Below are positions 23,297 to 48,566 of a DNA stretch of 64,000 bases, one piece after another. Numbering within the stretch: the first letter of the stretch is position 1; the number at the start of each line of letters is the position of its first letter. This stretch comes from a plasmid, in assembly GCF_055900595.2 (NCBI RefSeq), contig NZ_JBVWEU010000002.1; one strand, 5' to 3'. Position numbers and translations under genes: made by a program. The notes beneath the pieces were generated by a model. It ran no database searches. It was not told the DNA's origin and saw only the letters and a program-made list of their open reading frames with translations.

Positions 23297-23946
23297 ACAA
23301 CCTAGAGCACCAGAAAGTCCACACCAGAATGGTGAAAGAGGTTCTGAAAGCCGTCGCCAGAGCCAATAATCACCCTTATCAGTCCGTATTTACAGACTTT
23401 ATCGCCGGTCATCCCTCCTGCACGGTCTGTTTCTGGGAAACCTTCAACAAAATGTACCCGGATTCACCGTACGAATACGTCACGTTCTGCCATACCTGCC
23501 GTCGTTTGATTTATACGAAACAGAAGCGGAGATGAAGGCGGATGACCCGAAGTGGTGGTGATTTTCAGCCCCGACCGCTGAAACGCCTGTTCACAATGTC
23601 GCGGTATAAAAATCGACCATGCAGAGAGAGAAACCACCGGAGTGGTGGGAAAAGCAGAAAGGCTCACGTGGCATAAGGCGTGGACAGCGGTATCGTCTGG
23701 TTTTTCAATTTCCTATACGTGAACACAATCTGCAATTCGGTATACAGCGAACCTGCCACCATAAGTGTTTTTATACCACTTAACTGGCTCAGCACCGGGG
23801 GCAGGCTTCATTCTGAATTCATCGCGCAGACGTCCTTTCGAGAAACACCTGTCTTCGGCAATCTCCTGCGCACGTCTGGTGACCAGCTCATCATTATTCA
23901 TGGTTCTTGCATCTCCGTCAGACGTTTTTATATCCGGACAGCCCCT

Positions 23947-24100
23947 CTATGGCCACTTCTGTGCAGTATGCAATACACGCAGGATATACACTTTTCCCCA
24001 CTGGCTGTCGACCTCATAAACCAGAACAAAATGCGGGTGAATAACCAGTTCCCGGGTACCTTCCACACGACCATTGCGGCCTTTATACGGCTGCCCGGCT
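23947..24100 (-). pseudogene. 3' fragment of a RelE/ParE-family toxin gene
   Basis: C-terminal ...GTRELVIHPHFVLVYEVDSQWGKVYILRVLHTAQKWP; the N-terminal part of the ORF is antisense IS66 sequence. Confidence 0.4.
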
Positions 24101-24109
24101 AGGCTGCTG

Positions 24110-24942
24110 GCTGAACACCCGCAAGGTTCACACTGATGACACACCAGTAAAAGTACTGGCACCGGGCAGGAAGAAGGCGAAAACAGGATATGTCTGGACG
24201 TATGTCCGGGATGACCGGAATGCCGGTTCGCCAGAACCTCCGGCGGTCTGGTTCGCCTACTCACCGGACCATCAGGGTAAACATCCGGAGCAACACCTTC
24301 GTCCCTTCCGGGGTATCCTGCAGGCAGATGCGTTCGCAGGTTACGATCGGCTGTTCAGTGCCGAACGTGAAGGCGGCGCGTTGACGGAAGCAGGATGCTG
24401 GGCTCATGCGCGGCGCAAAATCCACGATGTATATATCAGTACCAAAAGCGCGACGGCGGAAGAAGCACTGAAACTAATCGGCGAACTGTACGCCATTGAG
24501 CACGAAATACGCGGGTTGCCGGTGTCTGAACGCCTGGCGGTCAGGCAAATGCAGAGTAAACCGCTACTGACTTCCTTGTATAAGCTGATGCAGGAGAAAG
24601 AACACACGTTATCGAAAAAATGCCGTCTGAGAGATGCGTTCCGGTATATCAGGAAGCACTGGGTTGCGTTGTGCAACTTCTGTGATGACGGTCTGGCGGA
24701 GGCGGACAATAACACAGCGGAAAGAGCGCTTCGTGCAGTCTGTCTCGGAAAGAAAAATTACGTGTTCTTCGGTAGCGATCACGGCGGCGAGCGTGGTGCA
24801 CTGCTGTACGGGCTGATCGGCACCTGCCGTCTGAACGGTATCGATCCGGAAGCGTATCTGCGCCATATTCTGAGCGTACTGCCGGAATGGCTTTCCAACC
24901 GAGTTGACGAACTCCTGCCATGGAACGTAGTACTCACCAATA
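24110..24942 (+). mobile_element. IS66-family transposase gene fragment (C-terminal half), frameshifted, cut at 3' by the IS629-like copy
   Basis: ...VKVLAPGRKKAKTGYVWTY... then CWAHARRKIHDVY...DNNTAERALR...LPWN. Confidence 0.6.
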
Positions 24943-25687
24943 TGAACCGCCCCGGGTTTCCTGGAGAGTGTTTTATCTGTGAACTCAGGCTGCCAGATCA
25001 TCGTTTCCGATGGAAGCATAATAAGCTTTTTCTGCTTCTGCCGGAGGAGTATGGCCCAGCCTTTCCAGCAATCGTCGATTGTTATACCAGTCCACCCACG
25101 TGAGTGTGGCCAGCTCCACTTCTGTCCGGTTTTTCCAGCTCTTACGGTGTATTACCTCCGCTTTGTAAAGGCCATTGATGCTCTCCGCCATCGCGTTGTC
25201 ATACGAGTCGCCTGTACTCCCTGTTGATGCCAGTAATCCGGCTTCCTTAAGCCGCTGTGTGTAGGCCAGCGATACATACTGAGAACCTTTATCACTGTGA
25301 TGGACTGTGCCGGACGGTCGACGGGCCCATAACGCCTGCTCCAGAGCATCCAGCACGAATGTCGTTTCCATAGACGATGCGGCTCAGTTCACGATTTTCA
25401 CGTTCCAGCTCTTTCAGACGCTGACGTTCAGCGGTGGTGAGCCCGCCATCACCGCCTCCCGTATCCCGCTCATGCTGGCGTACCCAGACACGCAGAGTCT
25501 TCGGTGTACAGCCAATCTTTGGGGCAATGGAACAAATTGCCGCCCACTGTGAGTCATATTCGCCCTGACTTTCCAGAACCATACGAATCGCCCTCTGACG
25601 GACTTCGGGGGAAAAACGAGTATTTTTAGTCATTCTGTTTACCTCTTTCTCAGGGAGTTTAGTCTCCAGGATTCCCGGGGCGGTTCA
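24943..25687 (-). mobile_element. IS629-like element with an internal deletion of roughly 570 bp (orfA 3' end through mid-orfB)
   Basis: Same terminal sequences as the 14012-15321 copy, but the orfA translation diverges after RENREL and the orfB N-terminal half is absent. Confidence 0.75.
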
Positions 25688-26121
25688 GTAATACCGGTGA
25701 TCTCGAGGCCCGTTTGCAGAAGAACGGGAGTGTTCGTTTCCGTGACCGTCGGACGGGAGAGTTTGTCTGTACGGATTATGGTGACAGGGTTGTTTTCCGT
25801 AATCACCATGACCGCAATGCGCTGGCAGATAAACTGGATTTGATTGCACCTGTATTGTTTGAGCGTGATCCCAGAATGGGCTTTGAACCAGAAGGAAACG
25901 ACAAACAATTTAACCAGGTCTTTGCTGAAATGGTTGCCTGGCATAATGTGACAGGCCGTACCGGTCACGAAGACTACAGGATTACACGACCGGATGTGGA
26001 TCATCACCGGGAAGGAAGTGAACGCTACTACCGCGATTATATCGCGGCGAACAGCAACGATGACGCATCACTGCCTCCGCCGGAGCAGGATAAACGCTGG
26101 GAACCGCCATCTCCCGTATGA
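25688..26121 (+). pseudogene. 3' fragment of an unidentified gene, cut at 5' by the IS629-like end
   Basis: Open frame from the IS boundary to a stop at 26121; no family recognised by eye. Confidence 0.25.
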
Positions 26122-26306: not shown

Positions 26307-26579
26307 GGGGTAAGGGGTATTTGTTAAAAATCAGCACTATCCCTGCCAAATAGGATGATTAATATCACAATATATCGACAATTTTTTTAATATTAAACAA
26401 ATAAACATTTGAAAAAAGTTGTTTATGAATGTCATAGATTGATGTAAATCACATTTTTCATAACAACATTTAGACACCTCAAAAATATTCGCTCCTGTAA
26501 AACAACTTTTTTTTCTGTTGTGGGTCACCTTTATATTGAATACTCGTCACCAGTAAACAATATATACTGGAGATTTGTC

Positions 26580-27248
26580 ATGACGATATCCATTTTTCAG
26601 GCTCAACCCTTTGAATTACCCTTTGATCCGTGCACAACGGCACTGATCATGATAGACATGCAACGTGATTTTGTCGAAGCAGGAGGGTTTGGAGAAGCAT
26701 TGGGTAATGATGTTTCACTGGTTCGCACGGCTATCGCACCATGTAAAGAAGTTCTGGCAGCCGCACGTCAAAAAGGAATTATGGTTATTCATACCCGTGA
26801 AGGCCATCGTGAAGACTTAAGCGACTGCCCATCAGCCAAACTGACGCGCGGCGGAAAAACCTTTATTGGTGAACCAGGACCGATGGGACGCATTCTGGTC
26901 AGGGGTGAAGCAGGTCATGACATCATTCCTGAACTGTATCCGGTGACAGGCGAACCTGTGATTGATAAACCCGGTAAAGGCGCTTTTTATCAAACCGACT
27001 TACATCTGATTTTGCAAAAGCGTGGTATCAAGACACTTATTGTTTGTGGCGTGACTACCGAAGTTTGCGTAACCACCACCGTGCGTGAAGCAAATGACCG
27101 TGGCTATGAATGCATCATACCGGAAGATTGCGTTGGCTCCTATTTCCCGGAATTCCAGAAATACGCCCTTGAGATGATCAAAGCACAAGGTGCCATTTTC
27201 GGTTGGGTTACTGATTCCAAAGCCATTATTGCAGGTCTGGAAGGCTAA
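26580..27248 (+). CDS. Isochorismatase-family cysteine hydrolase (amidase-type)
   Basis: Start taken at ATG 26580 (GGAG about 7 nt upstream); MIDMQRDF (Asp), DKPGKGAF (Lys) and LIVCGVTTEVCV (Cys) match the family catalytic triad pattern. Confidence 0.7.
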   Translation: MTISIFQAQPFELPFDPCTTALIMIDMQRDFVEAGGFGEALGNDVSLVRTAIAPCKEVLAAARQKGIMVIHTREGHREDLSDCPSAKLTRGGKTFIGEPGPMGRILVRGEAGHDIIPELYPVTGEPVIDKPGKGAFYQTDLHLILQKRGIKTLIVCGVTTEVCVTTTVREANDRGYECIIPEDCVGSYFPEFQKYALEMIKAQGAIFGWVTDSKAIIAGLEG

Positions 27249-27253
27249 CGCCG

Positions 27254-28114
27254 ATGGTACAGGTTACGCTTTGTGCATCGTCGTTGGGATATCTTTTCCC
27301 GCAGAATGAAACGCAAGATTTACGTCTACATAGCGCTTTTAAACATGCGGTAAATCTGTATTCAGACGCGGGAACATTCATCACTCTGTTGTGTGCGCAA
27401 ACGTATCTGAATCTCCCTGATGCTGCCAGAGTCTGGCTACCTGAATGTTGGGACTGGCGAAGAGAGATTGCCCATTCAGATCCCATTCAATTAACCCCAG
27501 GCTTACTGCGGACACCTCGATTTTGTGTGGCGCTCGATAACGCAACGCTCTGGCAGTCGCCATTTGTGGGGGGAATGCTGACTCTTGAGGCATTGCCTTT
27601 GGTTTTCCAGCACTACCCCACGATAGCATCGCAACGGCTTTTATTTTGTCTGGAGCATAACGTTCAAAGCACATTGCACCTGCCGGATAGTCTCACGCAC
27701 CAGGGATTAGATATTATGGAACATCCAGATGCGCTGGAACGCCAGGTACCCCAACTGATCGGCTTTGGTAAAGGCTTAACGCCCGATGGAGATGACTATT
27801 TGCTGGGCTATCTGGCAGCCCTCTGGTTATGGCAACTCCCTGCACCACTTGCCAATCATCAATACAGGTTGCAGAAGGCAATTGAACAACATGCACACAA
27901 CACCACGGATATAAGTCGTCATTATCTGCAACGTGCGCTTCAGGGACATTTTTCAGAACCGATTTGCCGGTTACTCGCACAACTGGTTGGGAGCGCATCG
28001 GCAATGACAATCGCATCCTGTACAGAACAGATCATGCAATTTGGCGCAACATCAGGAGTAAATTGCCTTGCAGGAATGCTGCATGGATTTCGAACCCTGA
28101 ACACCATGAATTGA
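27254..28114 (+). CDS. DUF2877-family protein (YlbF/YahE-like)
   Basis: 286 aa; same position relative to the FdrA-like gene as in cluster 2; motif GLTPDGDDYLLGYL shared with the 43104 paralog (GLTPSSDDYLVGL). Confidence 0.55.
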   Translation: MVQVTLCASSLGYLFPQNETQDLRLHSAFKHAVNLYSDAGTFITLLCAQTYLNLPDAARVWLPECWDWRREIAHSDPIQLTPGLLRTPRFCVALDNATLWQSPFVGGMLTLEALPLVFQHYPTIASQRLLFCLEHNVQSTLHLPDSLTHQGLDIMEHPDALERQVPQLIGFGKGLTPDGDDYLLGYLAALWLWQLPAPLANHQYRLQKAIEQHAHNTTDISRHYLQRALQGHFSEPICRLLAQLVGSASAMTIASCTEQIMQFGATSGVNCLAGMLHGFRTLNTMN

Positions 28115-28208
28115 TTTCAACCTTTTCTCCCGTAGCCCGTTTATGGGGCTACACGGGGATGCTTTGCCCGAATTTTGCTATCGGGCGGAATGGAACAGGC
28201 GTAACAGC

Positions 28209-29768
28209 ATGAAAGTTAAATATAAAGTTTTCAGTAATCTTTATCAGGACTCAGTTTCTCTGATGCAGATTTCCGCGCAAATCAGCAAGTTGCCCGGTAT
28301 TCAACAGGCCTCGGTCGTCATGGGAACACCCAATAATCTCGAGCAATTGCGCGATGCGGGTCTGGGTAACGAAATCAACGCCAGTCCCAATGATTTAGTG
28401 ATTGCAGTCATGGGTGAAGAAGATATTTGCAATGAAGCACTGCTACTGGCCCAGCAACGTCTGACCAGCAAACCCGATGATGAAACGGATTGTGGCATTA
28501 AATCACCGGAAAAGGTCAGCCTGGAAATGGCACTGGAAGCTGAACCCGAAGCCAACCTGGCACTCATTTCTGTACCGGGAGACTACGCCGCCGCCGAAGC
28601 AATTAAAGCGTTAAACCTCGGAATGAACGTGATGATGTTCAGCGATAACGTCAGTATCGGGCAGGAAAAATACATCAAAACGCTTGCCCGAGAACGTCAG
28701 CGCATCGTAATGGGACCTGACTGTGGAACCGCCATTGTTAACGGCATTCCGTTAGGCTTCGCTAATGTGGTGAAACGCGGAGCAATTGGTGTTATTGGCG
28801 CGTCAGGCACCGGGCTACAGGAAGTGACTTGCCGAATCGACCAGCTCGGAGCGGGTATTTCTCAGGCGTTGGGAACAGGCGGACATGATCTCAGTGAAGA
28901 GATTGGTGGAATATCAATGCTCTTTGCTTTAGATGCGCTGGCACAAGACGATGAAACTCACGTGATTGTGCTTATTTCAAAACCGCCTTCACCGATCGTT
29001 GCCCGGACTATTCTGGAGCGCGCCGAGGCTTGTGGAAAACCCGTGGTGGTGAATTTCCTCGGGGCGAATCCGCATGATCTGGCACGTCCCAATATCACTG
29101 CCGCCACCACACTTGCCAGCGCCGCCGACATCGCTGTGGCGTTACTGAATGATCAGCCACTTCCGGCTGTCGAGAACGAGGTTTCCTGCGACGATCTCAC
29201 AATGTTACAAAACGCCTGCCAAAGTCTGCCAGTCCATCGCCAGGCGATACGCGGTGTTTTCGCCGGAGGAACCTTCTGTTACGAAGCTCAGCTTATCTGC
29301 CAACAAAAGGGATTCCATGCCGCCTCCAATACGCCAGTTGCGGGTAATCGTGCTCTGGCAAATATCTGGCAAAGTGAAGATCATACACTGATTGATATGG
29401 GGGACGATGATTTCACCCGTGGCAAACCGCATCCAATGATCGACCCGACTCTGCGCAATCAACGTCTGCTCAACGAACTCAACGACTCACATACTGCCGT
29501 TGTGTTATTCGACCTTGTACTTGGTTATGGCACCTCCGCTACGCCTGTCAGCGAATTACTGGACCAACTTTCACACATCGACATGAATAATGCACCGTTG
29601 CTGATTGCCCACGTTTGCGGAACAGAAGCTGATCCGCAAATACGCAGTCAGCAGATAAGCTCACTACAAAATGCAGGCGTCATCATTGCCAACAGCAATG
29701 CACAGGCGGCGCTATGGGCCAGCACCGTTGCACAGACTCAGTTGCAGAAAAAGGAGCTAAATGCATGA
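28209..29768 (+). CDS. FdrA-like protein (acyl-CoA-synthetase/succinyl-CoA-synthetase-alpha fold)
   Basis: Start at ATG 28209 (MKVKYKVFSNLYQDSVSLMQIS...); clear paralog of ORF 43912-45459 (e.g. MGPDCGTAIVNG, GASGTGLQE, TRGKPHPMIDPT). Confidence 0.7.
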   Translation: MKVKYKVFSNLYQDSVSLMQISAQISKLPGIQQASVVMGTPNNLEQLRDAGLGNEINASPNDLVIAVMGEEDICNEALLLAQQRLTSKPDDETDCGIKSPEKVSLEMALEAEPEANLALISVPGDYAAAEAIKALNLGMNVMMFSDNVSIGQEKYIKTLARERQRIVMGPDCGTAIVNGIPLGFANVVKRGAIGVIGASGTGLQEVTCRIDQLGAGISQALGTGGHDLSEEIGGISMLFALDALAQDDETHVIVLISKPPSPIVARTILERAEACGKPVVVNFLGANPHDLARPNITAATTLASAADIAVALLNDQPLPAVENEVSCDDLTMLQNACQSLPVHRQAIRGVFAGGTFCYEAQLICQQKGFHAASNTPVAGNRALANIWQSEDHTLIDMGDDDFTRGKPHPMIDPTLRNQRLLNELNDSHTAVVLFDLVLGYGTSATPVSELLDQLSHIDMNNAPLLIAHVCGTEADPQIRSQQISSLQNAGVIIANSNAQAALWASTVAQTQLQKKELNA

Positions 29769-31189
29769 ATACCTTATTTAATCAGCCTTTGAAGGTCGTG
29801 AACGCGGGGCTACACAGTTTTGCTGACAATATTCAACATGCAGGAGGGCATGCTATATCCCTCAACTGGCAGCCGCCAGCACAAGGTGATATTGACACCG
29901 GTTTGGTTCTGGCGTCATTACTACGCCATCCACTGGTAGAAAGTGCCAACCAAATCGCCATGACACGTTATCTCGAAGCACAGCCCGTGTTGGTGGATGT
30001 CATGCTCGCTAAAGAAGCCATCCCCGAAATGGCTGAACAAAAACGCATTTTACACTCTGGTCCACCGATTGCCTGGGAAGATATGTGTGGTCCGGTAAAA
30101 GGGGCGATTATTGGTGCCATGCTGTACGAAGGCTGGGCTACAAGCCAGAAAGACGCAGAAAACCAGATAAACGCAGGCGAAATCGACCTTGCTCCTTGTC
30201 ATCATTATCACGCGGTTGGACCAATGGCAGGCATTATCAGCCCGTCGATGCCATTATGGGTGGTGGAAAACAAAACCAACGGCCATCGTACTTTTAGCAA
30301 TTTCAATGAGGGTCTGGGTAAGGTTCTCCGTTTTGGTGCCAATAACGATGAAGTTCTCAATCGTCTGGCCTGGATGCGTGATGAACTGGCGCCGGCCATG
30401 AAAGCAGCAATCGCACAACACGGCGAGCTGGAACTCAAGCCATTAATGGCGCAGGCGCTGCATATGGGGGATGAAGTTCATAACCGCAATGCTGCCGCTA
30501 CCGGTTTGCTGATTAAGCGCCTGCTCCCGGCATTGCTGGCCTGCTCTCTTCCACAGGAACATATCCAGCGCGTCGTGGCATTTATCACAGGTAACGATCA
30601 CTTCTTCCTCAATTTGTCGATGGCTGCCTGTAAAGCAATGATGGATGCCGCCGCCAATGTACCGTTCAGTTCAATGGTTACGGTGATGGCGCGTAACGGG
30701 GTGAATTTTGGTATTCGGCTTTCCGGTACTGGCGATCGCTGGTTTCAGGCTCCTGCCAATGCAGTTGAAGGTCTGTTCTTCCCCGGATTTGGCGTTGACG
30801 ACGCCGCTTCTGACCTGGGTGATAGCGCAATTACTGAAACCGCAGGTGTGGGTGGCTTCGCGATGGCGTCATCTCCGGCGATTGTTAAATTTGTGGGAGG
30901 CACCCCTGCCGATGCCACCAATAACAGCCGTCGGATGCAGGCAATCACCCTCGGCGGTAACCCCGCATTTACACTTCCAGCCCTCAATTTTGCCCCCACC
31001 GCAGCAGGTATTGATGCGTGTAAAGTGACCGATCGTGGCATTTTACCGGTCATCAATACGGGTATCGCCCACAAACAAGCGGGAGTCGGACAAATTGGTG
31101 CCGGGATCACCACTGCACCGATGGCCTGTTTTGTCGCTGCTGTACGTGAACTGGCGGAGATCGTCGCAAAGGAGAACCATCATGGTTAA
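29765..31189 (+). CDS. DUF1116-family protein (YlbE/YahG-like)
   Basis: Start ATG overlaps the upstream stop; paralog of 45459-46877 (LFNQPL..VN.G, HSGPPI.WE.MCG, GDSAITET.GVGGFAMA). Confidence 0.65.
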   Translation: MNTLFNQPLKVVNAGLHSFADNIQHAGGHAISLNWQPPAQGDIDTGLVLASLLRHPLVESANQIAMTRYLEAQPVLVDVMLAKEAIPEMAEQKRILHSGPPIAWEDMCGPVKGAIIGAMLYEGWATSQKDAENQINAGEIDLAPCHHYHAVGPMAGIISPSMPLWVVENKTNGHRTFSNFNEGLGKVLRFGANNDEVLNRLAWMRDELAPAMKAAIAQHGELELKPLMAQALHMGDEVHNRNAAATGLLIKRLLPALLACSLPQEHIQRVVAFITGNDHFFLNLSMAACKAMMDAAANVPFSSMVTVMARNGVNFGIRLSGTGDRWFQAPANAVEGLFFPGFGVDDAASDLGDSAITETAGVGGFAMASSPAIVKFVGGTPADATNNSRRMQAITLGGNPAFTLPALNFAPTAAGIDACKVTDRGILPVINTGIAHKQAGVGQIGAGITTAPMACFVAAVRELAEIVAKENHHG

Positions 31190-32138
31190 GCCACTGGCTG
31201 TCGTCGCGGTTGGCGGCAATGCGCTCATTCAGGACGATAAACGCAATAGTATTCCCGATCAATATGTTGCAGTAATGGAAAGCGTGCAGCATATCGTTGA
31301 TATGGTTGAAGCCGGATGGGAGCTGGTGCTAACCCATGGTAATGGCCCGCAGGTAGGCTTTATTCTGCGCCGCTCTGAACTTGCCAGTAACGAAGTTTCT
31401 CCGGTTCCTCTGGATTACGCCGTGGGTGATACCCAAGGCGCCATTGGATACATGTTCCAGAAAGCGCTGCATAACGAATTGGCTCGCCGTGGCATAAACA
31501 AACCGGTAATTGCCCTGGTGACACAAACGCGAGTCAGCCCATATGACGATGCTTTCGCCAGCCCCAGTAAACCGATTGGCGCGTTTCTTGATGAAGAAAC
31601 AGCACAACAACGCCAACAACAACTCGGCTGGACGCTGATGGAGGACGCCGGGCGTGGTTGGCGGCGTACAGTTCCCTCTCCTGCGCCACTGGAAATTATT
31701 GAGCACCACACCATCGCTCACCTTGTGCGCCAGGGATATCTGGTTATAGCCTGCGGCGGCGGCGGTATACCTGTGGTGCGAGACGGGCAACAACTGAAAG
31801 GTGTGGAAGCCGTGATCGATAAAGACCTGGCCTCCGCATTGCTCGCCAGTCAGTTAGGCGCTGATCTGCTGGTGATCCCCACCGGTGTAGAAAAAGTGGC
31901 GATTCACTTTGGTACACCACAACAACAATGGCTCGACGCTATCAGCGTCTACGAAGCTCAAACGCTGTTGCAGGAAGGTCAGTTTGGTGTCGGCAGTATG
32001 CAACCCAAAGTGGAAGCCATTATTGATTTCATCAATGCCAGCCAGCAACAAGGCAAACAGGCCAGCGGACTGATTACTTCACCGCAAACCATAAAAGCAG
32101 CCCTGGCACATCAGAGCGGAACATGGATAACCCTTTAA
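31182..32138 (+). CDS. Carbamate kinase
   Basis: Start at ATG 31182 (overlaps upstream gene by 8 nt); AVGGNAL ... THGNGPQVG ... ACGGGGIPVV motifs. Confidence 0.8.
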   Translation: MVKPLAVVAVGGNALIQDDKRNSIPDQYVAVMESVQHIVDMVEAGWELVLTHGNGPQVGFILRRSELASNEVSPVPLDYAVGDTQGAIGYMFQKALHNELARRGINKPVIALVTQTRVSPYDDAFASPSKPIGAFLDEETAQQRQQQLGWTLMEDAGRGWRRTVPSPAPLEIIEHHTIAHLVRQGYLVIACGGGGIPVVRDGQQLKGVEAVIDKDLASALLASQLGADLLVIPTGVEKVAIHFGTPQQQWLDAISVYEAQTLLQEGQFGVGSMQPKVEAIIDFINASQQQGKQASGLITSPQTIKAALAHQSGTWITL

Positions 32139-32154
32139 TTCTCTGGAGAACACA

Positions 32155-32544
32155 ATGACTACAACACTTTTAGCCGTTAACGGAACGCTGATGCGCGGTC
32201 TGGAACTCAACCCAAATATGCAAAAAGCTGGCGGTATTTTTGTCCGTGAAGACCGAACTGACGCCCATTACCGGTTATGGAGTATTAATGATCGTCATCC
32301 CGGAATGATCCGCGTGAATGAAGGAGGAGCACACGTAGACGTAGAAATCTGGCAACTGCCTCTGGCCAGTTTTGCCGAACTGTTAATGAACGAACCCGAA
32401 GGCCTGACCATTGGAAAAATCAAACTTGCCGATGGTAGCGAAGTACTGGGCGTACTGGCAGAAAGCTGGCTGACTGAAGGCCAGAAGGAGATTACAGCAC
32501 TGGGGGGCTGGCGCAAATACACCGGGAATTTTCACACGATGTAA
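32155..32544 (+). CDS. Small gamma-glutamyl-cyclotransferase-like (AIG2/allophanate-hydrolase C-domain-like) protein
   Basis: 129 aa; weak by-eye resemblance only. Confidence 0.4.
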   Translation: MTTTLLAVNGTLMRGLELNPNMQKAGGIFVREDRTDAHYRLWSINDRHPGMIRVNEGGAHVDVEIWQLPLASFAELLMNEPEGLTIGKIKLADGSEVLGVLAESWLTEGQKEITALGGWRKYTGNFHTM

Positions 32545-32569
32545 CGCGCATTTATAAAGGAAACATATT

Positions 32570-33790
32570 ATGCGTAAAGAAGATAATATGAATACGGCAT
32601 CAGGATTGCGTATTACCATGATTTTGCTGGGTATTGCCGTCACACCTGTGCTGTTGTCATCCTCAAGCCTCGGCAATCAACTTTCCAGTGGTAGTTTAAT
32701 TAGCGTCGTACTATTAGGCGGCGTCATTCTGACCTTACTTTCAGCCATCACCATTAGTGTGGGAGAAAAAGCCCGCCTGCCAACATACGGTATTGTGAAA
32801 TATTCATTTGGCGAAAAAGGGGCCATCGCCATTAATATTTTGATGGCTATAAGTCTGTTCGGCTGGATTGCCGTTACCGCTAATATGTTTGGTCATTCGG
32901 TGCATGACTTACTGGCGCAGAATGGGATTGAAGCGCCACTGGCACTGTTAGTGGCAGCTGGTTGTGTCATTTTTGTCGCCTCTACGGCCTTTGGTTTTTC
33001 CATTCTGGGCAAAGTTGCCCAGGTCGCCGTGCCGGTTATCGCACTGGTGCTGTGTTATATACTCTATGTGGCAACCCATACCGAAGTATCAGCGCCAGCA
33101 GCGATAGCGGAGATGAGTACAGGTGTCGCCGTTTCCACCGTTGTTGGCACTATTATTGTGCTGGTTGCTACACTTCCCGACTTCGGTAGTTTTGTACATA
33201 ACCGAAAACATGCTCTGATTGCCGCAGGTATGACGTTTCTGGTTGCCTACCCTCTGCTATACTGGGCGGGTGCAACGCCGAGTGCCATTAGCGGCCAGGG
33301 CTCTTTACTGAATGCTATGGCAGTATTCGGTGCGGTTATGCCTGCAGCACTGTTGCTGATATTCGCCTGCGTCACCGGTAATGCGGGCAATATGTTCCAG
33401 GGGACGTTGGTAGTTTCCACACTGCTTAGCCGCTTTCCCAAATGGCAGATTACCGTTGCGCTGGGTATCCTTTCCGCCATCGTAGGCAGTATGGATATTA
33501 TGGCGTGGTTTATTCCGTTTCTGCTGTTCCTGGGTATCGCGACTCCCCCAGTTGCCGGAATTTATATCGCTGACTTTTTCCTTTATCGCCGTAATGGCTA
33601 TCAAGAGTCGGTGTTAACTCAGGAGTCACAGGTTAAAGTACTGACATTCGCTGCATGGATCACAGGCACAGCGGTTGGCTTTATGACCGTAAAAGGCTTA
33701 TTCACCCTGACGACGATCCCTTCAGTTGACTCCATTCTGGTGGCATGTATCGCGTATGCGATTCTCAGTCGGGCAAGTCAACACCGCTAA
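32570..33790 (+). CDS. NCS1-family permease (cytosine/purine/hydantoin-type)
   Basis: 406 aa, about 12 hydrophobic segments; resemblance to CodB-type permeases. Confidence 0.6.
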   Translation: MRKEDNMNTASGLRITMILLGIAVTPVLLSSSSLGNQLSSGSLISVVLLGGVILTLLSAITISVGEKARLPTYGIVKYSFGEKGAIAINILMAISLFGWIAVTANMFGHSVHDLLAQNGIEAPLALLVAAGCVIFVASTAFGFSILGKVAQVAVPVIALVLCYILYVATHTEVSAPAAIAEMSTGVAVSTVVGTIIVLVATLPDFGSFVHNRKHALIAAGMTFLVAYPLLYWAGATPSAISGQGSLLNAMAVFGAVMPAALLLIFACVTGNAGNMFQGTLVVSTLLSRFPKWQITVALGILSAIVGSMDIMAWFIPFLLFLGIATPPVAGIYIADFFLYRRNGYQESVLTQESQVKVLTFAAWITGTAVGFMTVKGLFTLTTIPSVDSILVACIAYAILSRASQHR

Positions 33791-33867
33791 TTCCTGGGTA
33801 TACTCAGGCAATGATTACGGCTGAATCTGGAGAGATTCAGCCACTTTACCACTGACCAGGGAGCCTT

Positions 33868-34758
33868 ATGTTCATCTCAGACGAAACGATTCGAATTATT
33901 CATCTGGTCGCCAGACACCAGAACATCACCACCGCAGCCGAACAGTTAAATAAAGTCCCTTCTACTATCAGTTACACCCTGAAGAAAGCGGAAGAAACCC
34001 TGGGCGTTGAACTGTTCATTCGTAAGGGACGATATATTGAATTATCTCCGGCGGGGAGTTACTTCATCGAACATAGCAAAAATATTCTCCGCGATCTGGA
34101 TGCATTAAAGCGCAACACAGTGCTGATTCACGATGGTATTGAGCGTGAACTGACAATTGCGGTGAACAATATTATACCTGGTGATTTTCTGGTGTCATTT
34201 ATTCAAGATTTTGAACGGCAATTCACATCAACAACACTGACGGTAGATATTGAAGTATACAACGGCTGCTGGGATGCGCTGTACAGTAAACGTGCTGATC
34301 TGGTCTACGGTGCTCCTCATGCAGTACCAAGCAGTGAAGGCATCATTAGCGAACCGGTCGGACAAATAGAATGGGATTTTGTCGTCAGCCCACTTCATCC
34401 ACTGGCAGTGAAGCGGAATCCATTAGAAAATAGTGAATTGCGTCATTATCCTGCGGTTTGTATCCGGGATACCTCCGTTAACTTCCCCCCAATGCAAGCC
34501 TGGTTGTTGGAAGGACAAAAACCTATTTTTGTTCCTGACTTCGCCATGGCAATCAGCTTAATAGAACAAAACGTCGGTATTGGTTATATTCCACATCATC
34601 TGGCATTGCCGTTATTGAACAGAGGTAAATTGCTTAAAAAGCCAATGCGCGAACATAAACACGCCACCAAGTTATTTCTTGCCGCTCGTTCCGATGGTAT
34701 AGGAAAAGCCTGTCTGTGGTGCATGTCGTATTTAAGAAATAAGCAATTCATGGCGTAA
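33868..34758 (+). CDS. LysR-family transcriptional regulator
   Basis: 296 aa; N-terminal HTH (TAAEQLNKVPSTISYTLKKAEETLGVELFIRKGR). Confidence 0.75.
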   Translation: MFISDETIRIIHLVARHQNITTAAEQLNKVPSTISYTLKKAEETLGVELFIRKGRYIELSPAGSYFIEHSKNILRDLDALKRNTVLIHDGIERELTIAVNNIIPGDFLVSFIQDFERQFTSTTLTVDIEVYNGCWDALYSKRADLVYGAPHAVPSSEGIISEPVGQIEWDFVVSPLHPLAVKRNPLENSELRHYPAVCIRDTSVNFPPMQAWLLEGQKPIFVPDFAMAISLIEQNVGIGYIPHHLALPLLNRGKLLKKPMREHKHATKLFLAARSDGIGKACLWCMSYLRNKQFMA

Positions 34759-34881
34759 TACCATCAATACAGTGATATTGCCAGGCTCTTCCAGGGTTAT
34801 ACTGAATGCAATGATCCGAAAGGATGATGAATGGATTGATTCATACCACAAGTTTTCATTTTGACATCCTCCACGCCCTAA

Positions 34882-35016
34882 GGACGAGGGGTCCTGCTTC
34901 AACGGGCGGCATCCGTCATCCGCCAATACATTGAATAGCAGCAGACACCTGGTTAGGTGGAAAACAGCGCCTTATATCCCCGCTGAAGGACGGGGTTTTA
35001 CGGTGCACGGATAAAA
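34882..35016 (+). repeat. Copy B of the ~134-bp direct repeat bracketing cluster 1
   Basis: Near-identical to 26174-26306; ends CCCCG-CTGAAGG-ACGGGG followed by TTTTA (terminator-like). Confidence 0.8.
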
Positions 35017-35191
35017 GGAGCATGAATGATGGAGTATGTAGAAGTATCGGAGAAAATTTGATATTCTTCTTGATAAAATGAGATTTTCTGCACATATAAG
35101 CATACAGGAGATTCATAGTACAAAAATAAAAAATCATAATAATAAACTTAAATTGACATAACTATAATCAACTTTGAACAGGAATATATTA

Positions 35192-35581
35192 ATGATAAAA
35201 CAAAAGGTATTTTTCTCAGGTACTGTACTAGCTATTTTTTTATCTCTCAGCAACGTATCTTTGGCTTCCGGCCTGGATAAAAACATGCAGTCTCTTGCCA
35301 AAAGTATGAGTATTCTACAATCTTCCAATGATAAATCATCACTATTAAATGCTCTTGAAATGATGGATAAATCTGTAGATTCTTCTATGAATATTATTCC
35401 TGAAAAGATAGATGTTAATGATAAAGTTTCTGTAGATAATTATAAGGAAGAGTTAAAAAAACTACAACATGAAATCAATATTGCAAAAAAGAAAGTTGAG
35501 GACGGGAATATAGAATCATTACGTGAGTCTCTGGATAAAATGAACGATATAAAACTTGAAGGTCACCGAAAATTCAGATGA
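35192..35581 (+). CDS. Secreted cytochrome b562-family protein
   Basis: ATG 35192 then signal peptide MIKQKVFFSGTVLAIFLSLSNVSLA; mature N-terminus ...DKNMQSL and C-terminus ...LEGHRKFR parallel the Met/His heme-ligand positions of cytochrome b562 as I recall it; AT-rich. Confidence 0.5.
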   Translation: MIKQKVFFSGTVLAIFLSLSNVSLASGLDKNMQSLAKSMSILQSSNDKSSLLNALEMMDKSVDSSMNIIPEKIDVNDKVSVDNYKEELKKLQHEINIAKKKVEDGNIESLRESLDKMNDIKLEGHRKFR

Positions 35582-35832
35582 TCTACAAAAATAAATTTTA
35601 ATATTTAAATACGGCAATATATTTTATCATGTATTGCCGTCTTGGCGTATTCTTTCCGTTCCATTCAATTGCATCTGGCATAACAAGAGAAATAGTAGAC
35701 TCCTCATTACTGCTGTTGTATAACTGCGCACCATAATCTGCTAGACTGGCCCCCTGAATCTCCAGACAACCAATATCACTTAAATAAGTGATAGTCTTAA
35801 TACTAGTTTTTAGACTAGTCATTGGAGAGCAG

Positions 35833-36198
35833 ATGATTGATGTCTTAGGACCGGAGAAACGCAGACGGCGTACTACACAGGAAAAGATCGCTATTGTTCA
35901 GCAGAGTTTTGAACCGGGAATGACGGTCTCCCTTGTAGCCCGGCAACACGGTGTGGCAGCCAGCCAGCTATTTCTCTGGCGCAAGCAATACCAGGAGGGA
36001 AGTCTTACTGCTGTGGCCGCAGGAGAGCAGGTCGTTCCTGCCTCTGAACTTGCTGCTGCCATGAAGCAGATTAAAGAACTCCAGCGCCTGCTCGGCAAAA
36101 AAACGATGGAAAATGAACTCCTTAAAGAAGCCGTTGAATATGGGCGTGCAAAAAAGTGGATAGCGCACGCGCCCTTATTGCCCGGGGATGGGGAGTAA
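35833..36198 (+). CDS. insC: IS2 transposase OrfA
   Basis: [56 protein letters not shown]... matches IS2 InsC as I recall it. Confidence 0.85.
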
Positions 36199-36821
36199 GC
36201 TTAGTCAGCCGTTGTCTCCGGGTGTCGCGTGCGCAGTTGCACGTCATTCTCAGACGAACCGATGACTGGAAAGATGGTCGCCGCAGCCGTCACTCCGATA
36301 ATACGGATGTGCTTCTCCGTATACACCATGTTATCGGAGAGCTGCCCACGTATGGTTATCGTCGGGTATGGGCGCTGCTTCGCAGACAGGCCGAACTTGA
36401 TGGTATGCCTGCGATCAATGCCAAACGTGTTTACCGGATCATGCGCCAGAATGCGCTGTTGCTTGAGCGAAAAACCGCTGTACCGCCATCGAAGCGGGCA
36501 CATACTGGCAAAGTGGCCGTGAAAGAAAGCAATCAACGATGGTGCTCTGACGGGTTCGAGTTCCGCTGTGATAACGGAGAAAAACTGCGAGTCACGTTCG
36601 CGCTGGACTGCTGTGACCGTGAGGCACTGTACTGGGCGGTCACTACGGGCGGCTTCGACAGTGAAACAGTACAGGACGTCATGCCAGGAGCGGTGGAACG
36701 CCGCTTCGGCAACGAGCTTCCGGCGTCTCCAGTAGAGTGGCTGACGGATAATGGTTCATGCTACCGGGCTAATGAAACACGGCAGTTTGCCCGGATGTTG
36801 GGGCTTGAACCGAAGAACACA
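36156..36821 (+). pseudogene. insD: IS2 transposase OrfB, 3'-truncated
   Basis: First about 222 aa match IS2 InsD; the ORF then reads through into unrelated ABC-ATPase sequence. Confidence 0.8.
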
Positions 36822-37292
36822 GAGTTGAGTGCGTCTATCCTGGAGAACGTTGCTGTTGTGCCTCAAAAAGCCGTTCTGGTGCAGGGAACTATTCGTGATA
36901 ATATTCTGTATGGAACCGATGACATTCTTCCCGATGATGAACTGTTTTGCATCCTGAATTCATTAGGGTTAATTAAAGAGGACTGCGGAGAACATTTCCT
37001 TGCTTTCCTAGACCGGGATATTAATCCTCTGGGTAGTGGTTTGAGTGGTGGAGAGATCCAGCGATTATGCATAGCCCGCGCCCTAGCCCGTAAGAAAAAG
37101 ATTATCGTACTTGATGAACCCACGGCCTCTATTGGCGAAGAACTCGCGATAAAGATCATTACCTATATCCGGCAGCATTGCCCTACCGTTATTATTACAA
37201 CTCATAATCCACGAATTCTGGAGCTCGCCGATCATTTTTTTGATGGTATGTCAAAGTCTTGCGTCATTGCTGGAGAAGGCAGAGACCAATAA
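36822..37292 (+). pseudogene. C-terminal fragment of an ABC-transporter ATP-binding domain
   Basis: ...[11 protein letters not shown] ... [15 protein letters not shown] ... [12 protein letters not shown] ... VIITTHNP; no Walker A or upstream portion. Confidence 0.55.
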
Positions 37293-41095: not shown

Positions 41096-42025
41096 TCACG
41101 CTCGATGCATCAAATCCTGATAAATCCCCGTCAGTATTCCTTGTAAGCTAAATTCTCTTTTTATCCACTGAGTGACTTGACCGCTTGCCGAATGCCTGGT
41201 TGCCAACAGCATTCGTGAATCCTGACGTGGGTTGTGGATCTGCCGTGTCACCAGCAATGACTTTTCCATCGCTTCACGCACCATATAGTCTGGCAGAAAA
41301 CCGATTCCCTCCCCCAAGATCTGGCACTGAAGCTTAGTATTAAAGTCGGGAACCAGAATCGACTCTTGCCCGTGTAACAGCCAGCCGACTTTTTTGTTTA
41401 TAGTGTTTGCAGTGTCTTCCACCATGATGTTCGGGTACAGACGTAACTGACTCTCAGAAATGGGCTCAGGAATAAACGCCAGCGGATGAGCCGGAGAAAT
41501 CGCGAACAACCAACGAATCATGCCGATTTCAATGTAATCAATTCCACCACCGTCCAGTAACGTATCGGGCGCGCCAATGGCGATATCAGCCTGGTTATTA
41601 ATGAGTGAATCCCAGACGCCATTATACACCTCTGTAGTAATAGCTATCTGGCAGGTTGGAAAGTGTTCCCTGAGCACTTGCAGAAGCCGAGCTGTATGCT
41701 GAGGGGTATACAACAGTTGATTAATACAAATGCGCACCCGGGATTTAATTCCCTGAGCGATGGCATCAACTCTACGTATGATGGAGTGGTAATCGTTGAG
41801 CAGGTCAGTTGCTTTGCAAAAAAGGTAGTGCCCGGGCTCGGTCAGCTCAATGCTACGGGTAGTTCGGGTAAAAAGCACCACGTCAAGCCCCATTTCCATA
41901 CGCTTGATAGTGTAACTAATTGCCGATGTGGTTAAGCCCAGTTCCTTCGCCGCCTTGCTGAAACTTCTATAGCGGGCAGCCATAGTAAATGCCAGTAAGT
42001 TTTCTTCCGTAAATATTGAATTCAT
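41096..42025 (-). CDS. LysR-family transcriptional regulator, divergent from cluster 2
   Basis: Start taken at internal ATG 42025 (MNSIFTEENLLAFTMAARYRSFSKAAKELGLTTSAISYTIKRME...); HTH plus LysR substrate-binding domain. Confidence 0.75.
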   Translation of the reverse strand: MNSIFTEENLLAFTMAARYRSFSKAAKELGLTTSAISYTIKRMEMGLDVVLFTRTTRSIELTEPGHYLFCKATDLLNDYHSIIRRVDAIAQGIKSRVRICINQLLYTPQHTARLLQVLREHFPTCQIAITTEVYNGVWDSLINNQADIAIGAPDTLLDGGGIDYIEIGMIRWLFAISPAHPLAFIPEPISESQLRLYPNIMVEDTANTINKKVGWLLHGQESILVPDFNTKLQCQILGEGIGFLPDYMVREAMEKSLLVTRQIHNPRQDSRMLLATRHSASGQVTQWIKREFSLQGILTGIYQDLMHRA

Positions 42026-42412
42026 CTTTCTTTCCTCTGGCGACAATACACATACACAACATGATGATTGTTGAATGTATTTGTAATTCTTATAACCGAC
42101 AATCAGTTTTGAAAAAACTAACACCGTATTTACATTTAATTTGAAGGAAATCACACATCTGAATTTTAATTACAGGCAGCTATCCGTGCTGCAGACCACC
42201 TTTATTTATATGACTGCGGATTAATGGCTAAAATATCCCCAGCTATAATAGAAATATTGCACTATATCACACTCTCTTATTATTGTTAATTTTGTTTCAA
42301 TAATTCATGGTCTAATGATGAGTAAATTTTAAATGGATGGTGCTCTATGCATTCTGTTGCTATTCTTGGCTTGTTATATTTGTAAAATCTTAAAAAGAGC
42401 AGGAGATCGATT
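42026..42412. promoter_or_regulatory. Divergent control region between the LysR gene and the cluster 2 operon
   Basis: 387-bp AT-rich intergenic region between divergently oriented genes; inferred from arrangement only. Confidence 0.35.
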
Positions 42413-43018
42413 ATGTCCAATAAAGAACTCATTACAGAATTTCTGCTGGCGGCAGAACAAGGTAATTCCGATGGATTAAAATCATGCCTTGATAAAAAGG
42501 TTGATATTAATGCGACTAACCGCGAGGGGCGTACTGCAATTATTATTGCCAGTCTGAATAAACATTATGACTGCGTTTCTTTATTGATTTCCGCAGGTGC
42601 TGATATTAATAAACAAGATCAAACTTGTTTTAATCCCTTCCTGATTGGCTGCCTGAATAATGATTTAACACTGTTGCGTACGGTATTACCGGCTAACCCC
42701 GACCTTAATTGCCTAACCCGTTTTGGCGGTGTTGGTATTACACCTGCCTGCGAAAAAGGCCATGTCGAGATTGTACGTGAATTGCTGATGCGTACTGATA
42801 TCAATGTCAACCATACTAATTTTGTTGGCTGGACGCCGCTCCTAGAGGCCATCGTGCTGAATGACGGCGGTGAAAAGCAGCAGGAGATCGTCAAACTGTT
42901 GCTTGAGCATGGCGCAAACCCGCACATGACGGATAAATACGGTAAAACCCCGCTGGAGCTGGCGCGAGAAAAAGGCTACCACAAAATTGCCGAGTTGCTG
43001 ATTTCGGCTGGAGCCTGA
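42413..43018 (+). CDS. Ankyrin-repeat protein (YahD-like)
   Basis: 201 aa; repeated ...G.TAL..A...GH...V..LL..GAD.N.. units. Confidence 0.75.
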   Translation: MSNKELITEFLLAAEQGNSDGLKSCLDKKVDINATNREGRTAIIIASLNKHYDCVSLLISAGADINKQDQTCFNPFLIGCLNNDLTLLRTVLPANPDLNCLTRFGGVGITPACEKGHVEIVRELLMRTDINVNHTNFVGWTPLLEAIVLNDGGEKQQEIVKLLLEHGANPHMTDKYGKTPLELAREKGYHKIAELLISAGA

Positions 43019-43103
43019 CAACAGGAGCACGATTATCGCTATATTATCACGGCAATCTTTTCGGGCACTAACCGCAGACTGCGCGTTTCTCACTTTTCGG
43101 GGA

Positions 43104-46877: not shown

Positions 46878-46989
46878 CAATAACCGGGGCTAACGCAGTT
46901 AGCCCCACAGTAGCGGAAAACGTTGTTTACCTTCAGGGCTGGGCGATCTCCATGATCGCAAACGATGCTTAACCTGTTAAGGAGATTCC

Positions 46990-48540: not shown

Positions 48541-48566
48541 ATAGCCTGCAAACGGAAGATAATTCT

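Follow-up and report, generated by a model that had tools for sequence, protein, structure and literature searches.

Anaerobic allantoin degradation in Escherichia coli K-12 involves AllFGH, a phosphorolytic carbamoyltransferase of three subunits that works with a catabolic carbamate kinase, AllK (PMC11326118, PMC9843812). The oxamate carbamoyltransferase (OXTCase) activity of AllFGH, in which oxalurate and phosphate give carbamoyl phosphate and oxamate, has been shown experimentally (PMC11326118), and the Pfam families DUF2877 and DUF1116 are now named AllH and AllG after the enzyme. The same families occur again in the yah locus of K-12, where the genes for YahE (DUF2877), YahF (FdrA-like), YahG (DUF1116) and the carbamate kinase YahI are accompanied by a LysR regulator, an ankyrin-repeat protein and the amidohydrolase YahJ. 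Here we investigate an operon of this kind at positions 26580-34758 of a 64,000-nucleotide stretch of plasmid DNA (contig NZ_JBVWEU010000002.1, assembly GCF_055900595.2), referred to as the window. In it, the three subunit genes and a carbamate kinase gene are preceded by a gene for a hydrolase that resembles TrtA.

TrtA belongs to the hydrolytic pathway of Herbaspirillum and Rhizobium, in which TrtA or AtzD is followed by TrtB, BiuH and AtzF. TrtA, starting from triuret, and AtzD, starting from cyanuric acid, both yield 1-carboxybiuret (PMC7948467). TrtA has been described as ultraspecific for triuret, with weak activity on formylurea (PMC7948467), and its kcat/Km for triuret is about 1e5 per M per s. 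Both triuret and cyanuric acid arise from the chemical oxidation of uric acid, and triuret is present in human urine (PMC7948467). In nitrifiers, trtA/biuH genes have been found beside allFGHK, sometimes with codB, and were interpreted as two neighbouring pathways, for biuret and for oxalurate (PMC12625717, 2025).

An earlier note on the window, made from its sequence alone, had described the operon as having no known substrate. Within the literature searched, we likewise found no paper assigning its substrate, nor an AllFGH-type enzyme acting on carboxybiuret, biuret or allophanate. Which compound, then, does the operon handle? The note had left this open; two findings, a TrtA signature in the hydrolase and the replacement of the hydrolase by AtzD in a sister module, narrow it here to triuret and carboxybiuret. 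By sequence, the operon is probably a self-contained module for the uptake and catabolism of triuret (carbonyldiurea) or a very close polyureide.

The TrtA-type hydrolase and the AllFGH-type core

Family calls were checked with NCBIfam and Pfam models. The eight family assignments of the earlier note, for the genes numbered g1 to g8 in Table 1, were all correct, and two of them, those of g1 and g6, could then be refined. The first gene had been called an isochorismatase-family cysteine hydrolase. The family stands, as orthologues of g1 match Pfam Isochorismatase, and the type can now be given as that of TrtA. The best solved structure for g1 is TrtA (6XIX/6XJE; E 2e-79, 58% identity); BiuH (6AZO) matches at E 3e-71 with 54% identity, and RutB at E 2e-30. 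The catalytic triad of TrtA is D24, K129 and C162, its substrate contacts are F29, E72, K132 and Q202, and it has a V157-T158 cis-peptide. Six positions separate it from BiuH: F35, N41, A134, E160, Y187 and I205 in TrtA, the first five being Y, Y, S, D and T in the BiuH consensus (PMC7948467). The Rhizobium BiuH has Y, Y, S, D, T and V at the six. At these catalytic, substrate-binding and discriminating residues g1 is identical to TrtA in 15 of 15 cases (D26, F31, F37, N43, E74, K130, K133, A135, V158, T159, E161, C163, Y188, Q203 and I206), and differs from the Rhizobium BiuH in 7 of the 15. It thus has the Asp-Lys-Cys triad and the Val-Thr cis-peptide pair, with D26, K130, C163, V158 and T159 aligning with D24, K129, C162, V157 and T158 of TrtA, and the TrtA consensus at F37, N43, A135, E161, Y188 and I206, plus Q203.

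The NCBIfam equivalog model for BiuH (NF050097, cut-off 370) gives 279.8 bits for g1, 256.3 for TrtA and 410.5 for the Rhizobium BiuH. The g1 protein is not of the BiuH type, and it misses the cut-off just as TrtA does. Its predicted reaction is the conversion of triuret and water to 1-carboxybiuret and ammonia. The earlier suggestion that this amidohydrolase opens a ring does not hold for an enzyme of the TrtA type, which would deamidate a linear polyureide; the ring-opening enzyme AtzD is found only in the sister module described below.

Is this combination of genes a peculiarity of one plasmid? One genome per species was scanned with a DUF2877 protein profile, and each open reading frame (ORF) was scored by BLAST against a reference set. 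The order hydrolase, AllH, AllF, AllG, carbamate kinase, AH_C, NCS1 permease is invariant in about 38 species, and the 15-residue TrtA signature is present in 38 of 38 module orthologues from other genomes. The module occurs in the Enterobacterales (Escherichia, Citrobacter, Buttiauxella, Edwardsiella, Budvicia, Rahnella, Serratia, Limnobaculum and Enterobacter), in the Burkholderiales (Caballeronia, Paraburkholderia and Burkholderia), in Silvimonas and Amantichitinum of the Neisseriales and in Dyella. Precomputed Pfam tables have the same families in Edwardsiella, Caballeronia, Citrobacter, Vibrio vulnificus, Psychrobacter and Photobacterium profundum. The order of the seven genes holds across about 40 gamma- and betaproteobacterial species in total. 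Across modules the hydrolase is 78-94% identical, AllG about 70-96%, AH_C 70-89% and the permease 68-93%, AllH being only 34-91%. Neither a second isochorismatase-like gene (BiuH) nor a full-length allophanate hydrolase was found within 9 kb in the 38 loci scored in the ORF/BLAST table.

The three genes that follow the hydrolase encode the putative carbamoyltransferase. The g2 protein matches Pfam AllH (PF11392, E 3.3e-26) and is 25-34% identical to YahE, to AllH and to a second copy in the window; its GLTPDGDD motif is invariant in 22 homologues. The g3 protein exceeds the cut-off of the NCBIfam FdrA subfamily model NF004760 (491.6 bits, cut-off 433) and matches Pfam Ligase_CoA (2.5e-38) and CoA_binding (3.3e-9). 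Its His408, part of an HPMID motif, does not vary among 10 diverse FdrA-like proteins, which come from all three clades described below and from Gram-positive bacteria and also have other invariant Gly-rich motifs in common; this histidine is a candidate catalytic residue of the enzyme class. The g4 protein matches Pfam AllG (PF06545, E 8e-99) and is 72-87% identical to module orthologues in many genera. Profile searches therefore place the core ORFs in the FdrA, DUF1116 and DUF2877 families, and the homology to fdrA/ylbE/ylbF that had been claimed for the triad is borne out. The role proposed for those genes has fared equally well, carbamoyltransferase activity having since been demonstrated for AllFGH (PMC11326118). 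The g5 protein exceeds the cut-offs of both carbamate kinase models, the arcC equivalog TIGR00746 (365.2, cut-off 358.25) and PRK12352 (375.7, cut-off 266), and is 48% identical to YahI and 39% to AllK. From this assignment it is predicted to convert carbamoyl phosphate and ADP to carbamate and ATP.

At the level of the family, then, the locus has what is expected of an AllFGH-type carbamoyltransferase: the three genes are adjacent and a carbamate kinase gene is linked to them, g5 overlapping g4 by 8 nucleotides. Orthology to the oxalurate-specific AllFGH is another matter. Pairwise identity to the K-12 proteins is 40% (AllF) and 42% (YahF) for g3, 48% (AllG) and 47% (YahG) for g4, and 32% (AllH) and 25% (YahE) for g2, and there are no adjacent all genes. 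In neighbour-joining trees of AllG and AllF homologues the operon falls in a clade of its own, apart from the Yah clade and from the All clade, which takes in Enterococcus and Lentilactobacillus relatives. On these trees the triad is a third lineage of FdrA/DUF1116/DUF2877 enzymes.

When the gene neighbourhoods are compared, the families are common to all three loci, the order is that of the yah locus and the front-end genes differ. AllFGH-AllK, like the operon, has three subunits of the same families beside a carbamate kinase, and the chemistry predicted for the operon is like its own: phosphorolysis of an N-acylurea to carbamoyl phosphate and then formation of ATP. However, the order is AllH-AllF-AllG-carbamate kinase in the operon and AllF-AllG-AllH-AllK in K-12, the links are to a TrtA-type hydrolase, an AH_C protein and an NCS1 permease in one case and to allantoin genes in the other, and the predicted substrate is carboxybiuret rather than oxalurate. 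The yah locus has the same order of core genes and a LysR regulator, but its proteins are 25-48% identical and form a separate clade, and its ankyrin-repeat protein and YahJ amidohydrolase stand in contrast to the TrtA-type hydrolase, AH_C protein and NCS1 permease of the operon. An orthologue of the yah locus is also present in the window: the genes at 41096-49529 are orthologous to K-12 yahB-yahD-yahE-yahF-yahG-yahI (53-93% identity), and an extra ORF of 516 aa for a hypothetical protein (46990-48540) separates the DUF1116 gene from that for carbamate kinase. There are thus two different AllFGH-like systems on the plasmid.

Two further genes complete the structural part of the operon. The earlier note had read g6 as a GGCT-like, cyclotransferase-like protein. 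The match to Pfam AH_C (PF21986, E 4.7e-42) far exceeds that to GGACT (PF06094, E 1.1e-3, 20 bits), so g6 is filed under AH_C and lends no support to a cyclotransferase step; the two folds may be related. AH_C is the C-terminal domain of allophanate hydrolase (AtzF, KlAH and the allophanate hydrolase domain of DUR1,2), and g6 matches the whole of it, aligning to residues 472-595 of the 600 in the NCBIfam allophanate hydrolase model. The N-terminal amidase-signature domain is missing from this protein of 129 aa, in which Pfam AH_C is the only domain, and it therefore cannot be an allophanate hydrolase. The C domains of the allophanate hydrolases 4ISS and 4GYR match at E 1e-11, and PDB entry 5C5Z, about 91% identical, appears to be a closely related allele. 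That entry was deposited as "Glutamyl-tRNA amidotransferase" though only the AH_C domain is present; the name looks as if it had been carried over from the amidase part of allophanate hydrolase. The gene travels with the hydrolase front end and not with the triad, and it is absent from the AtzD module. Decarboxylase of an N-carboxy compound and partner of the hydrolase are candidate roles.

The g7 protein had been called a nucleobase-type importer. The NCS1 family is upheld, as Pfam Transp_cyt_pur matches the orthologues of g7, and g7 is not CodB itself: with the NCBIfam cytosine permease model (NF008241) g7 reaches 148 bits against a cut-off of 326, and it belongs to NCS1/Transp_cyt_pur at the level of the family only. 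It is predicted to import the substrate.

The AtzD sister module and a predicted triuret pathway

The same back end is found with an unrelated front end. On a plasmid contig of Klebsiella michiganensis (L045, 4987-15065) and in Huaxiibacter chinensis (L040), AllH, AllF, AllG, carbamate kinase and LysR proteins are 35, 64, 78, 70 and 65% identical to those of the operon. The order in this sister module is membrane protein, AtzD, NCS2 permease, AllH, AllF, AllG, carbamate kinase and LysR, and its AtzD scores 538 bits with the NCBIfam equivalog model for cyanuric acid amidohydrolase (cut-off 360). Its AllG and AllF nest inside the clade of the TrtA module, apart from the All and Yah clades. No isochorismatase-like hydrolase, AH_C protein or NCS1 permease was found when the ORFs of the L045 and L040 modules were scored against the reference set. 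The back end thus belongs to the orthogroup of the operon, whereas the front end consists of a ring-opening cyanuric acid amidohydrolase and different transporters in place of the TrtA-type hydrolase, AH_C and NCS1. An extra gene of the AtzD module, of 411 aa, was considered as an analogue of AH_C and rejected; it encodes a multi-pass membrane protein and has no Pfam family.

Copies of the AtzD module with at least 99% identity occur on 47 PLSDB plasmids, mostly conjugative, of IncC, IncR and other types. The module has no BiuH, AtzE or AtzF. Their hosts are Citrobacter, Klebsiella, Enterobacter, Leclercia, Raoultella, E. coli, Aeromonas, Shewanella and Serratia. In one example, on an IncC/IncR plasmid, it lies between a mer operon and IS26, without BiuH, AtzE or AtzF nearby. 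A further locus is at 187977-198056 of NZ_MG252895.1. The module may let enteric bacteria use cyanuric acid. Literature searches that combined cyanuric acid hydrolase with carbamate kinase, or that looked for cyanuric acid genes carried on plasmids of Enterobacteriaceae, returned nothing relevant, and the module appears to be uncharacterised.

What do triuret and cyanuric acid have in common? Their first enzymes, TrtA and AtzD, are unrelated and have one product, and the back ends that follow them here are orthologous. This implies that the substrate of the back end is carboxybiuret or the compound into which carboxybiuret directly decays, and the simplest reading is that the back end takes carboxybiuret, or biuret formed by its decay. 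Allophanate is disfavoured as the point of entry, because the AtzD module has no enzyme that makes allophanate from biuret.

These observations suggest a pathway in which triuret is deamidated to carboxybiuret, the triad cleaves carboxybiuret with phosphate to give carbamoyl phosphate, and carbamate kinase makes ATP; we give it about an even chance of being correct. Triuret would be imported by the NCS1 permease g7. The hydrolase g1, judging from its active-site and second-shell signature, would strip one terminal amide from it, giving ammonia and 1-carboxybiuret. The complex of g2 to g4 would then split carboxybiuret with phosphate at its terminal carbamoyl group, giving carbamoyl phosphate and allophanate, and allophanate would probably be cleaved likewise to carbamoyl phosphate and carbamate, for a total of two carbamoyl phosphates and one carbamate. 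This step is proposed from the intermediate common to the two front ends and by analogy with the phosphorolysis of oxalurate, since oxalurate is also an N-acylurea carboxylate. From carbamoyl phosphate and ADP the carbamate kinase g5 would form ATP and carbamate, the latter decaying to ammonia and carbon dioxide. The operon would be induced by the LysR-type regulator g8, and g6 would belong to the triuret-specific front end.

The first enzyme type and the predicted 1-carboxybiuret are those of the Herbaspirillum/Rhizobium pathway, but the operon has an AllFGH-like complex and carbamate kinase in place of TrtB, BiuH and AtzF. Carbamoyl groups would therefore escape hydrolysis and be kept as carbamoyl phosphate and ATP. 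Each triuret would yield all four of its nitrogens and up to two ATP, with no need for biuret hydrolase, allophanate hydrolase or urease. E. coli, Edwardsiella, Salmonella and many other hosts are typically urease-negative, and the scheme would therefore suit hosts such as E. coli. A comparable remark on urease-negative enterics has been made in the case of AllFGH (PMC11326118).

A number of points weigh against this pathway. All the substrates assigned to the operon are inferred, and the phosphorolysis of allophanate is purely so. No single signature residue switches the specificity of TrtA (PMC7948467), so an identical signature makes triuret likely, not certain. The operons from which TrtA was defined have biuH and atzF as well, and the module has neither. 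With AllF and AllG the identity of the triad is only about 40-48%, and with AllH and YahE 25-34%, too little for a substrate to be read from its sequence. An Rfam scan of the whole window gave no riboswitch or other RNA family in 26-35 kb, and hence no ligand-specific element. The weak point is g6, for which the scheme has no definite need and which is missing from the AtzD module, though the same product is expected there.

One alternative would give g6 a function. Carboxybiuret would be decarboxylated to biuret, by g6 in the operon and spontaneously in the AtzD module, and the triad would convert biuret to carbamoyl phosphate and urea, with a yield of one ATP; the urea would be excreted or would await urease. 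The N and C domains of allophanate hydrolase act sequentially (PMC5770610), so that a lone C domain could decarboxylate an N-carboxy product; g6 accompanies the hydrolase and not the triad; and carboxybiuret undergoes spontaneous decarboxylation, its half-life being about 20 min, the canonical pathway having TrtB as its dedicated decarboxylase (PMC7948467). We nevertheless place this route on the unlikely side. Biuret is neutral, unlike oxalurate, the carboxylate that is the family's known substrate; no decarboxylase is present in the AtzD module; and the many hosts that are typically urease-negative would forfeit at least half of the nitrogen. Moreover, comammox Nitrospira contigs carry allFGHK next to trtA/biuH without the carboxybiuret decarboxylase gene trtB (PMC12625717). 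Another acyl-urea or ureide could instead be the substrate of g1, such as formylurea, an oxalyl or other product of urate oxidation or a natural compound, with the triad phosphorolysing the resulting N-carbamoyl acid. The identity to TrtA is only 58%, TrtA itself is weakly active on formylurea, the biuH and atzF partners that defined TrtA are missing, and the chemistry of triuret leaves both g6 and a CodB-like permease unexplained. A different ureide is unlikely all the same, given that 15 of 15 first- and second-shell residues match a TrtA that is ultraspecific for triuret and that the AtzD module points independently to carboxybiuret.

The remaining alternatives set the triuret chemistry aside altogether. 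That the triad and kinase are a second oxamate carbamoyltransferase for oxalurate, derived from allantoin or parabanate, with g1, g6 and g7 unrelated or providing a feeder step, would agree with the shared families, with the linked carbamate kinase as in allFGHK and with the annotation of such co-located nitrifier genes as oxalurate catabolism (PMC12625717). This we consider quite improbable, because the proteins are only 40, 48 and 32% identical to AllF, AllG and AllH and lie in a separate clade, because no allantoin genes are nearby, whereas allFGHK of K-12 adjoins allantoin-utilisation genes, and because neither the seven-gene synteny with a TrtA-type hydrolase nor the exchange for AtzD would be explained. 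For the chromosomal copy of the operon (GR29) the BEN2908 genome paper, which also notes a resemblance to Photobacterium, suggests a Rut-like pyrimidine function (PMC12928451, 2026). Here nitrogen would be salvaged through a CodB-like importer and a RutB-like hydrolase releasing carbamate, which the kinase would process. In that paper g1 is 32% identical to RutB and g7 26.5% to CodB, and RutB is the second-best NCBIfam model for g1. A Rut-like function is very improbable in our view: g1 is far closer to TrtA/BiuH (E 2e-79) than to RutB (2e-30), no homologue of RutA or of another rut-pathway gene was seen among the genes of the module, carbamate kinase yields ATP from carbamoyl phosphate and not from carbamate, and the AtzD module has no link to pyrimidines.

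Distribution, gene layout and plasmid setting

The eight genes are intact, co-directional and on the + strand, as seen in the ORF listing and the translations (Table 1). The ATGA overlap of 4 nucleotides between g3 and g4 at 29765 and the overlap of 8 nucleotides between g4 and g5 at 31182 are as the earlier note had given them, and the RefSeq annotation of identical plasmids has the same gene coordinates. The successive gaps from g1 to g8 are 5, 94, -4, -8, 16, 25 and 77 nucleotides, and a GGAG/AGGA-type (Shine-Dalgarno-like) ribosome-binding site precedes all eight start codons. ORFs on the minus strand are at most 154 aa long and all nested within + strand genes; they were treated as spurious, and family matches were not sought for them.

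Table 1. Genes and non-coding features of the operon, by position in the window
Feature	Position	Strand	Length	Description
Upstream regulatory region	26320-26579	+		Conserved blocks in a 260-nt alignment from 14 Enterobacterales loci
g1	26580-27248	+	222 aa	Isochorismatase-like cysteine hydrolase, TrtA type
g2	27254-28114	+	286 aa	AllH family (DUF2877)
AllH-AllF intergenic spacer	28115-28208	+	94 nt	Two hairpins, minimum free energy -33.2 kcal/mol
g3	28209-29768	+	519 aa	FdrA/AllF-like, succinyl-CoA-ligase-alpha-like fold
g4	29765-31189	+	474 aa	AllG family (DUF1116)
g5	31182-32138	+	318 aa	Carbamate kinase
g6	32155-32544	+	129 aa	Stand-alone AH_C domain
g7	32570-33790 (RefSeq start 32567)	+	406 aa	NCS1-family, CodB-like permease
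g8	33868-34758	+	296 aa	LysR-type regulator

The operon had been counted as one of eight genes. Seven structural genes form the conserved unit; that the LysR gene is a member of it is not established, as its position varies. It is downstream in the Enterobacterales, upstream in Vibrio and Photobacterium and absent in several Burkholderiaceae, so that the unit is better regarded as seven structural genes with an associated regulator. The g8 protein scores below the cut-offs of the NCBIfam models for PunR (275.8, cut-off 345) and AllS (205, cut-off 372). It is probably the regulator of the pathway, with PunR and AllS as relatives, and its transcription may be separate.

Short repeats upstream of g1 are AT-rich and uninterpretable alone, and alignment across species was more useful. 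The conserved blocks include TCACA boxes near 26365 and 26449, an A/T-rich dyad, TTTGAAAAAAGTTGT, at 26408-26422 and a -10-like sequence, GAATACTCG, at 26538-26546. A role of the blocks in 26320-26579 as promoter or LysR box may be supposed from the conservation. Scans for sigma-70 promoters and intrinsic terminators over 25.9-35.7 kb gave counts no higher than the shuffled expectation and so did not set the boundaries of the transcription unit. Megablast homology to the chromosomal copy begins only at 26566, a hint that the plasmid copy had lost its native promoter; this was rejected, since the 260 nucleotides upstream are homologous and have diverged. In the spacer between the AllH and AllF genes, the second hairpin (GCCCGAATTTTGCTATCGGGC) recurs in Citrobacter and Edwardsiella with compensating changes. 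The spacer may be an element for the processing or stability of the mRNA.

[quoted passage not shown] The location on a virulence plasmid noted earlier therefore stands, yet the locus is not specific to plasmids, being a common accessory operon of E. coli chromosomes. It is present in 1,555 of 5,426 complete E. coli genomes (about 29%), at 1,522 chromosomal places with about 94.5% identity and at 128 plasmid places. The chromosomal copy lies between ysgA and metE in E. coli B-lineage strains, and the arrangement is the same in Citrobacter amalonaticus. In B2 strains of extraintestinal pathogenic E. coli (ExPEC), the operon is one end of the 16-kb "tkt1 island", where its genes were listed merely as yahE/F/G-like hypotheticals (PMC3349570, 2012). 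The operon, though uncharacterised, is thus not unknown, having been annotated and being widespread.

Among the genes for fitness in the gut in vivo that a transposon screen reported for NRG857c, a Crohn's-associated strain, is one for a carbamate kinase, NRG857_19070, which was read there as part of arginine or pyrimidine biosynthesis (PMC8016931). By its chromosomal position this is probably the kinase of the chromosomal copy (NC_017634.1, 4047296-4048252). The supplementary files of that study contain no NRG857_19070 tags, so the mapping is unconfirmed and remains a lead. A transcriptome paper on uropathogenic E. coli that mentions fdrA and DUF1116 was set aside, as it concerns the all genes of K-12 and not this operon.

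The DNA around the cluster is mosaic. Upstream are ATP-binding cassette transporter and major facilitator superfamily genes at about 18.6-22.6 kb, colicin-immunity remnants, insertion sequence (IS) fragments and a truncated nikB. Nearest to the operon, at 23700-26121, is a patchwork of pseudogenes consisting of an exonuclease, the yacB toxin, ISEc43, a DDE transposase and the truncated relaxase gene nikB (25687-26121). The cluster has evidently been inserted into, or is framed by, decayed mobile-element DNA. Directly 3' of the LysR gene the G+C content falls to about 35% in an AT-rich segment (34759-37292). This segment contains a gene for cytochrome b562 (35192-35581), followed by a frameshifted IS3 transposase; homology with the locus on the chromosome stops at about 34752. 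Elsewhere in the window the Rfam matches above the gathering score are STnc490 (13960-14033), the ALIL pseudoknot, an IS3-type frameshift signal (14870-14986), CopA-like RNA (57223-57313), the sok antitoxin (58120-58278) and AS-pc02 (59834-60019), all ordinary features of IncF plasmids and IS elements.

Possible meaning for polyureide use in enteric bacteria

The function of this operon is unassigned even though about 29% of complete E. coli genomes have it, among them those of laboratory strains of the B lineage and of most B2 ExPEC. The hypothesis that its substrate is triuret or carboxybiuret can be tested with commercial compounds and simple coupled assays. If the pathway proposed here is correct, then the FdrA/DUF1116/DUF2877 enzyme class would have a second known substrate, and there would be an energy-conserving alternative to the hydrolytic pathways for triuret, biuret and cyanuric acid. 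The trtA/biuH and allFGHK genes that lie together in nitrifiers would be open to another reading, and the AtzD module would explain the use of cyanuric acid by enteric bacteria without BiuH and AtzF.

In birds, uric acid is the main form in which nitrogen is excreted. The presence of the module in avian and urinary ExPEC and on APEC plasmids would fit the scavenging of oxidised urate, and the operon would then be a plasmid- and island-borne trait of ExPEC that is tied to the chemistry of uric-acid oxidation in the host. A wider proposal, which we advance tentatively and think somewhat doubtful, is that the AllFGH-type family has diversified into an unrecognised phosphorolytic polyureide pathway in which carboxybiuret, formed from triuret by a TrtA-type hydrolase or from cyanuric acid by AtzD, is dismantled carbamoyl by carbamoyl for up to two ATP and all the nitrogen, with the triuret version in ExPEC and APEC as a host-adapted trait. 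Were this true, the triuret version would harvest oxidised uric acid in birds, in urine and in the inflamed gut, while the cyanuric acid version would be spreading on multidrug-resistance plasmids.

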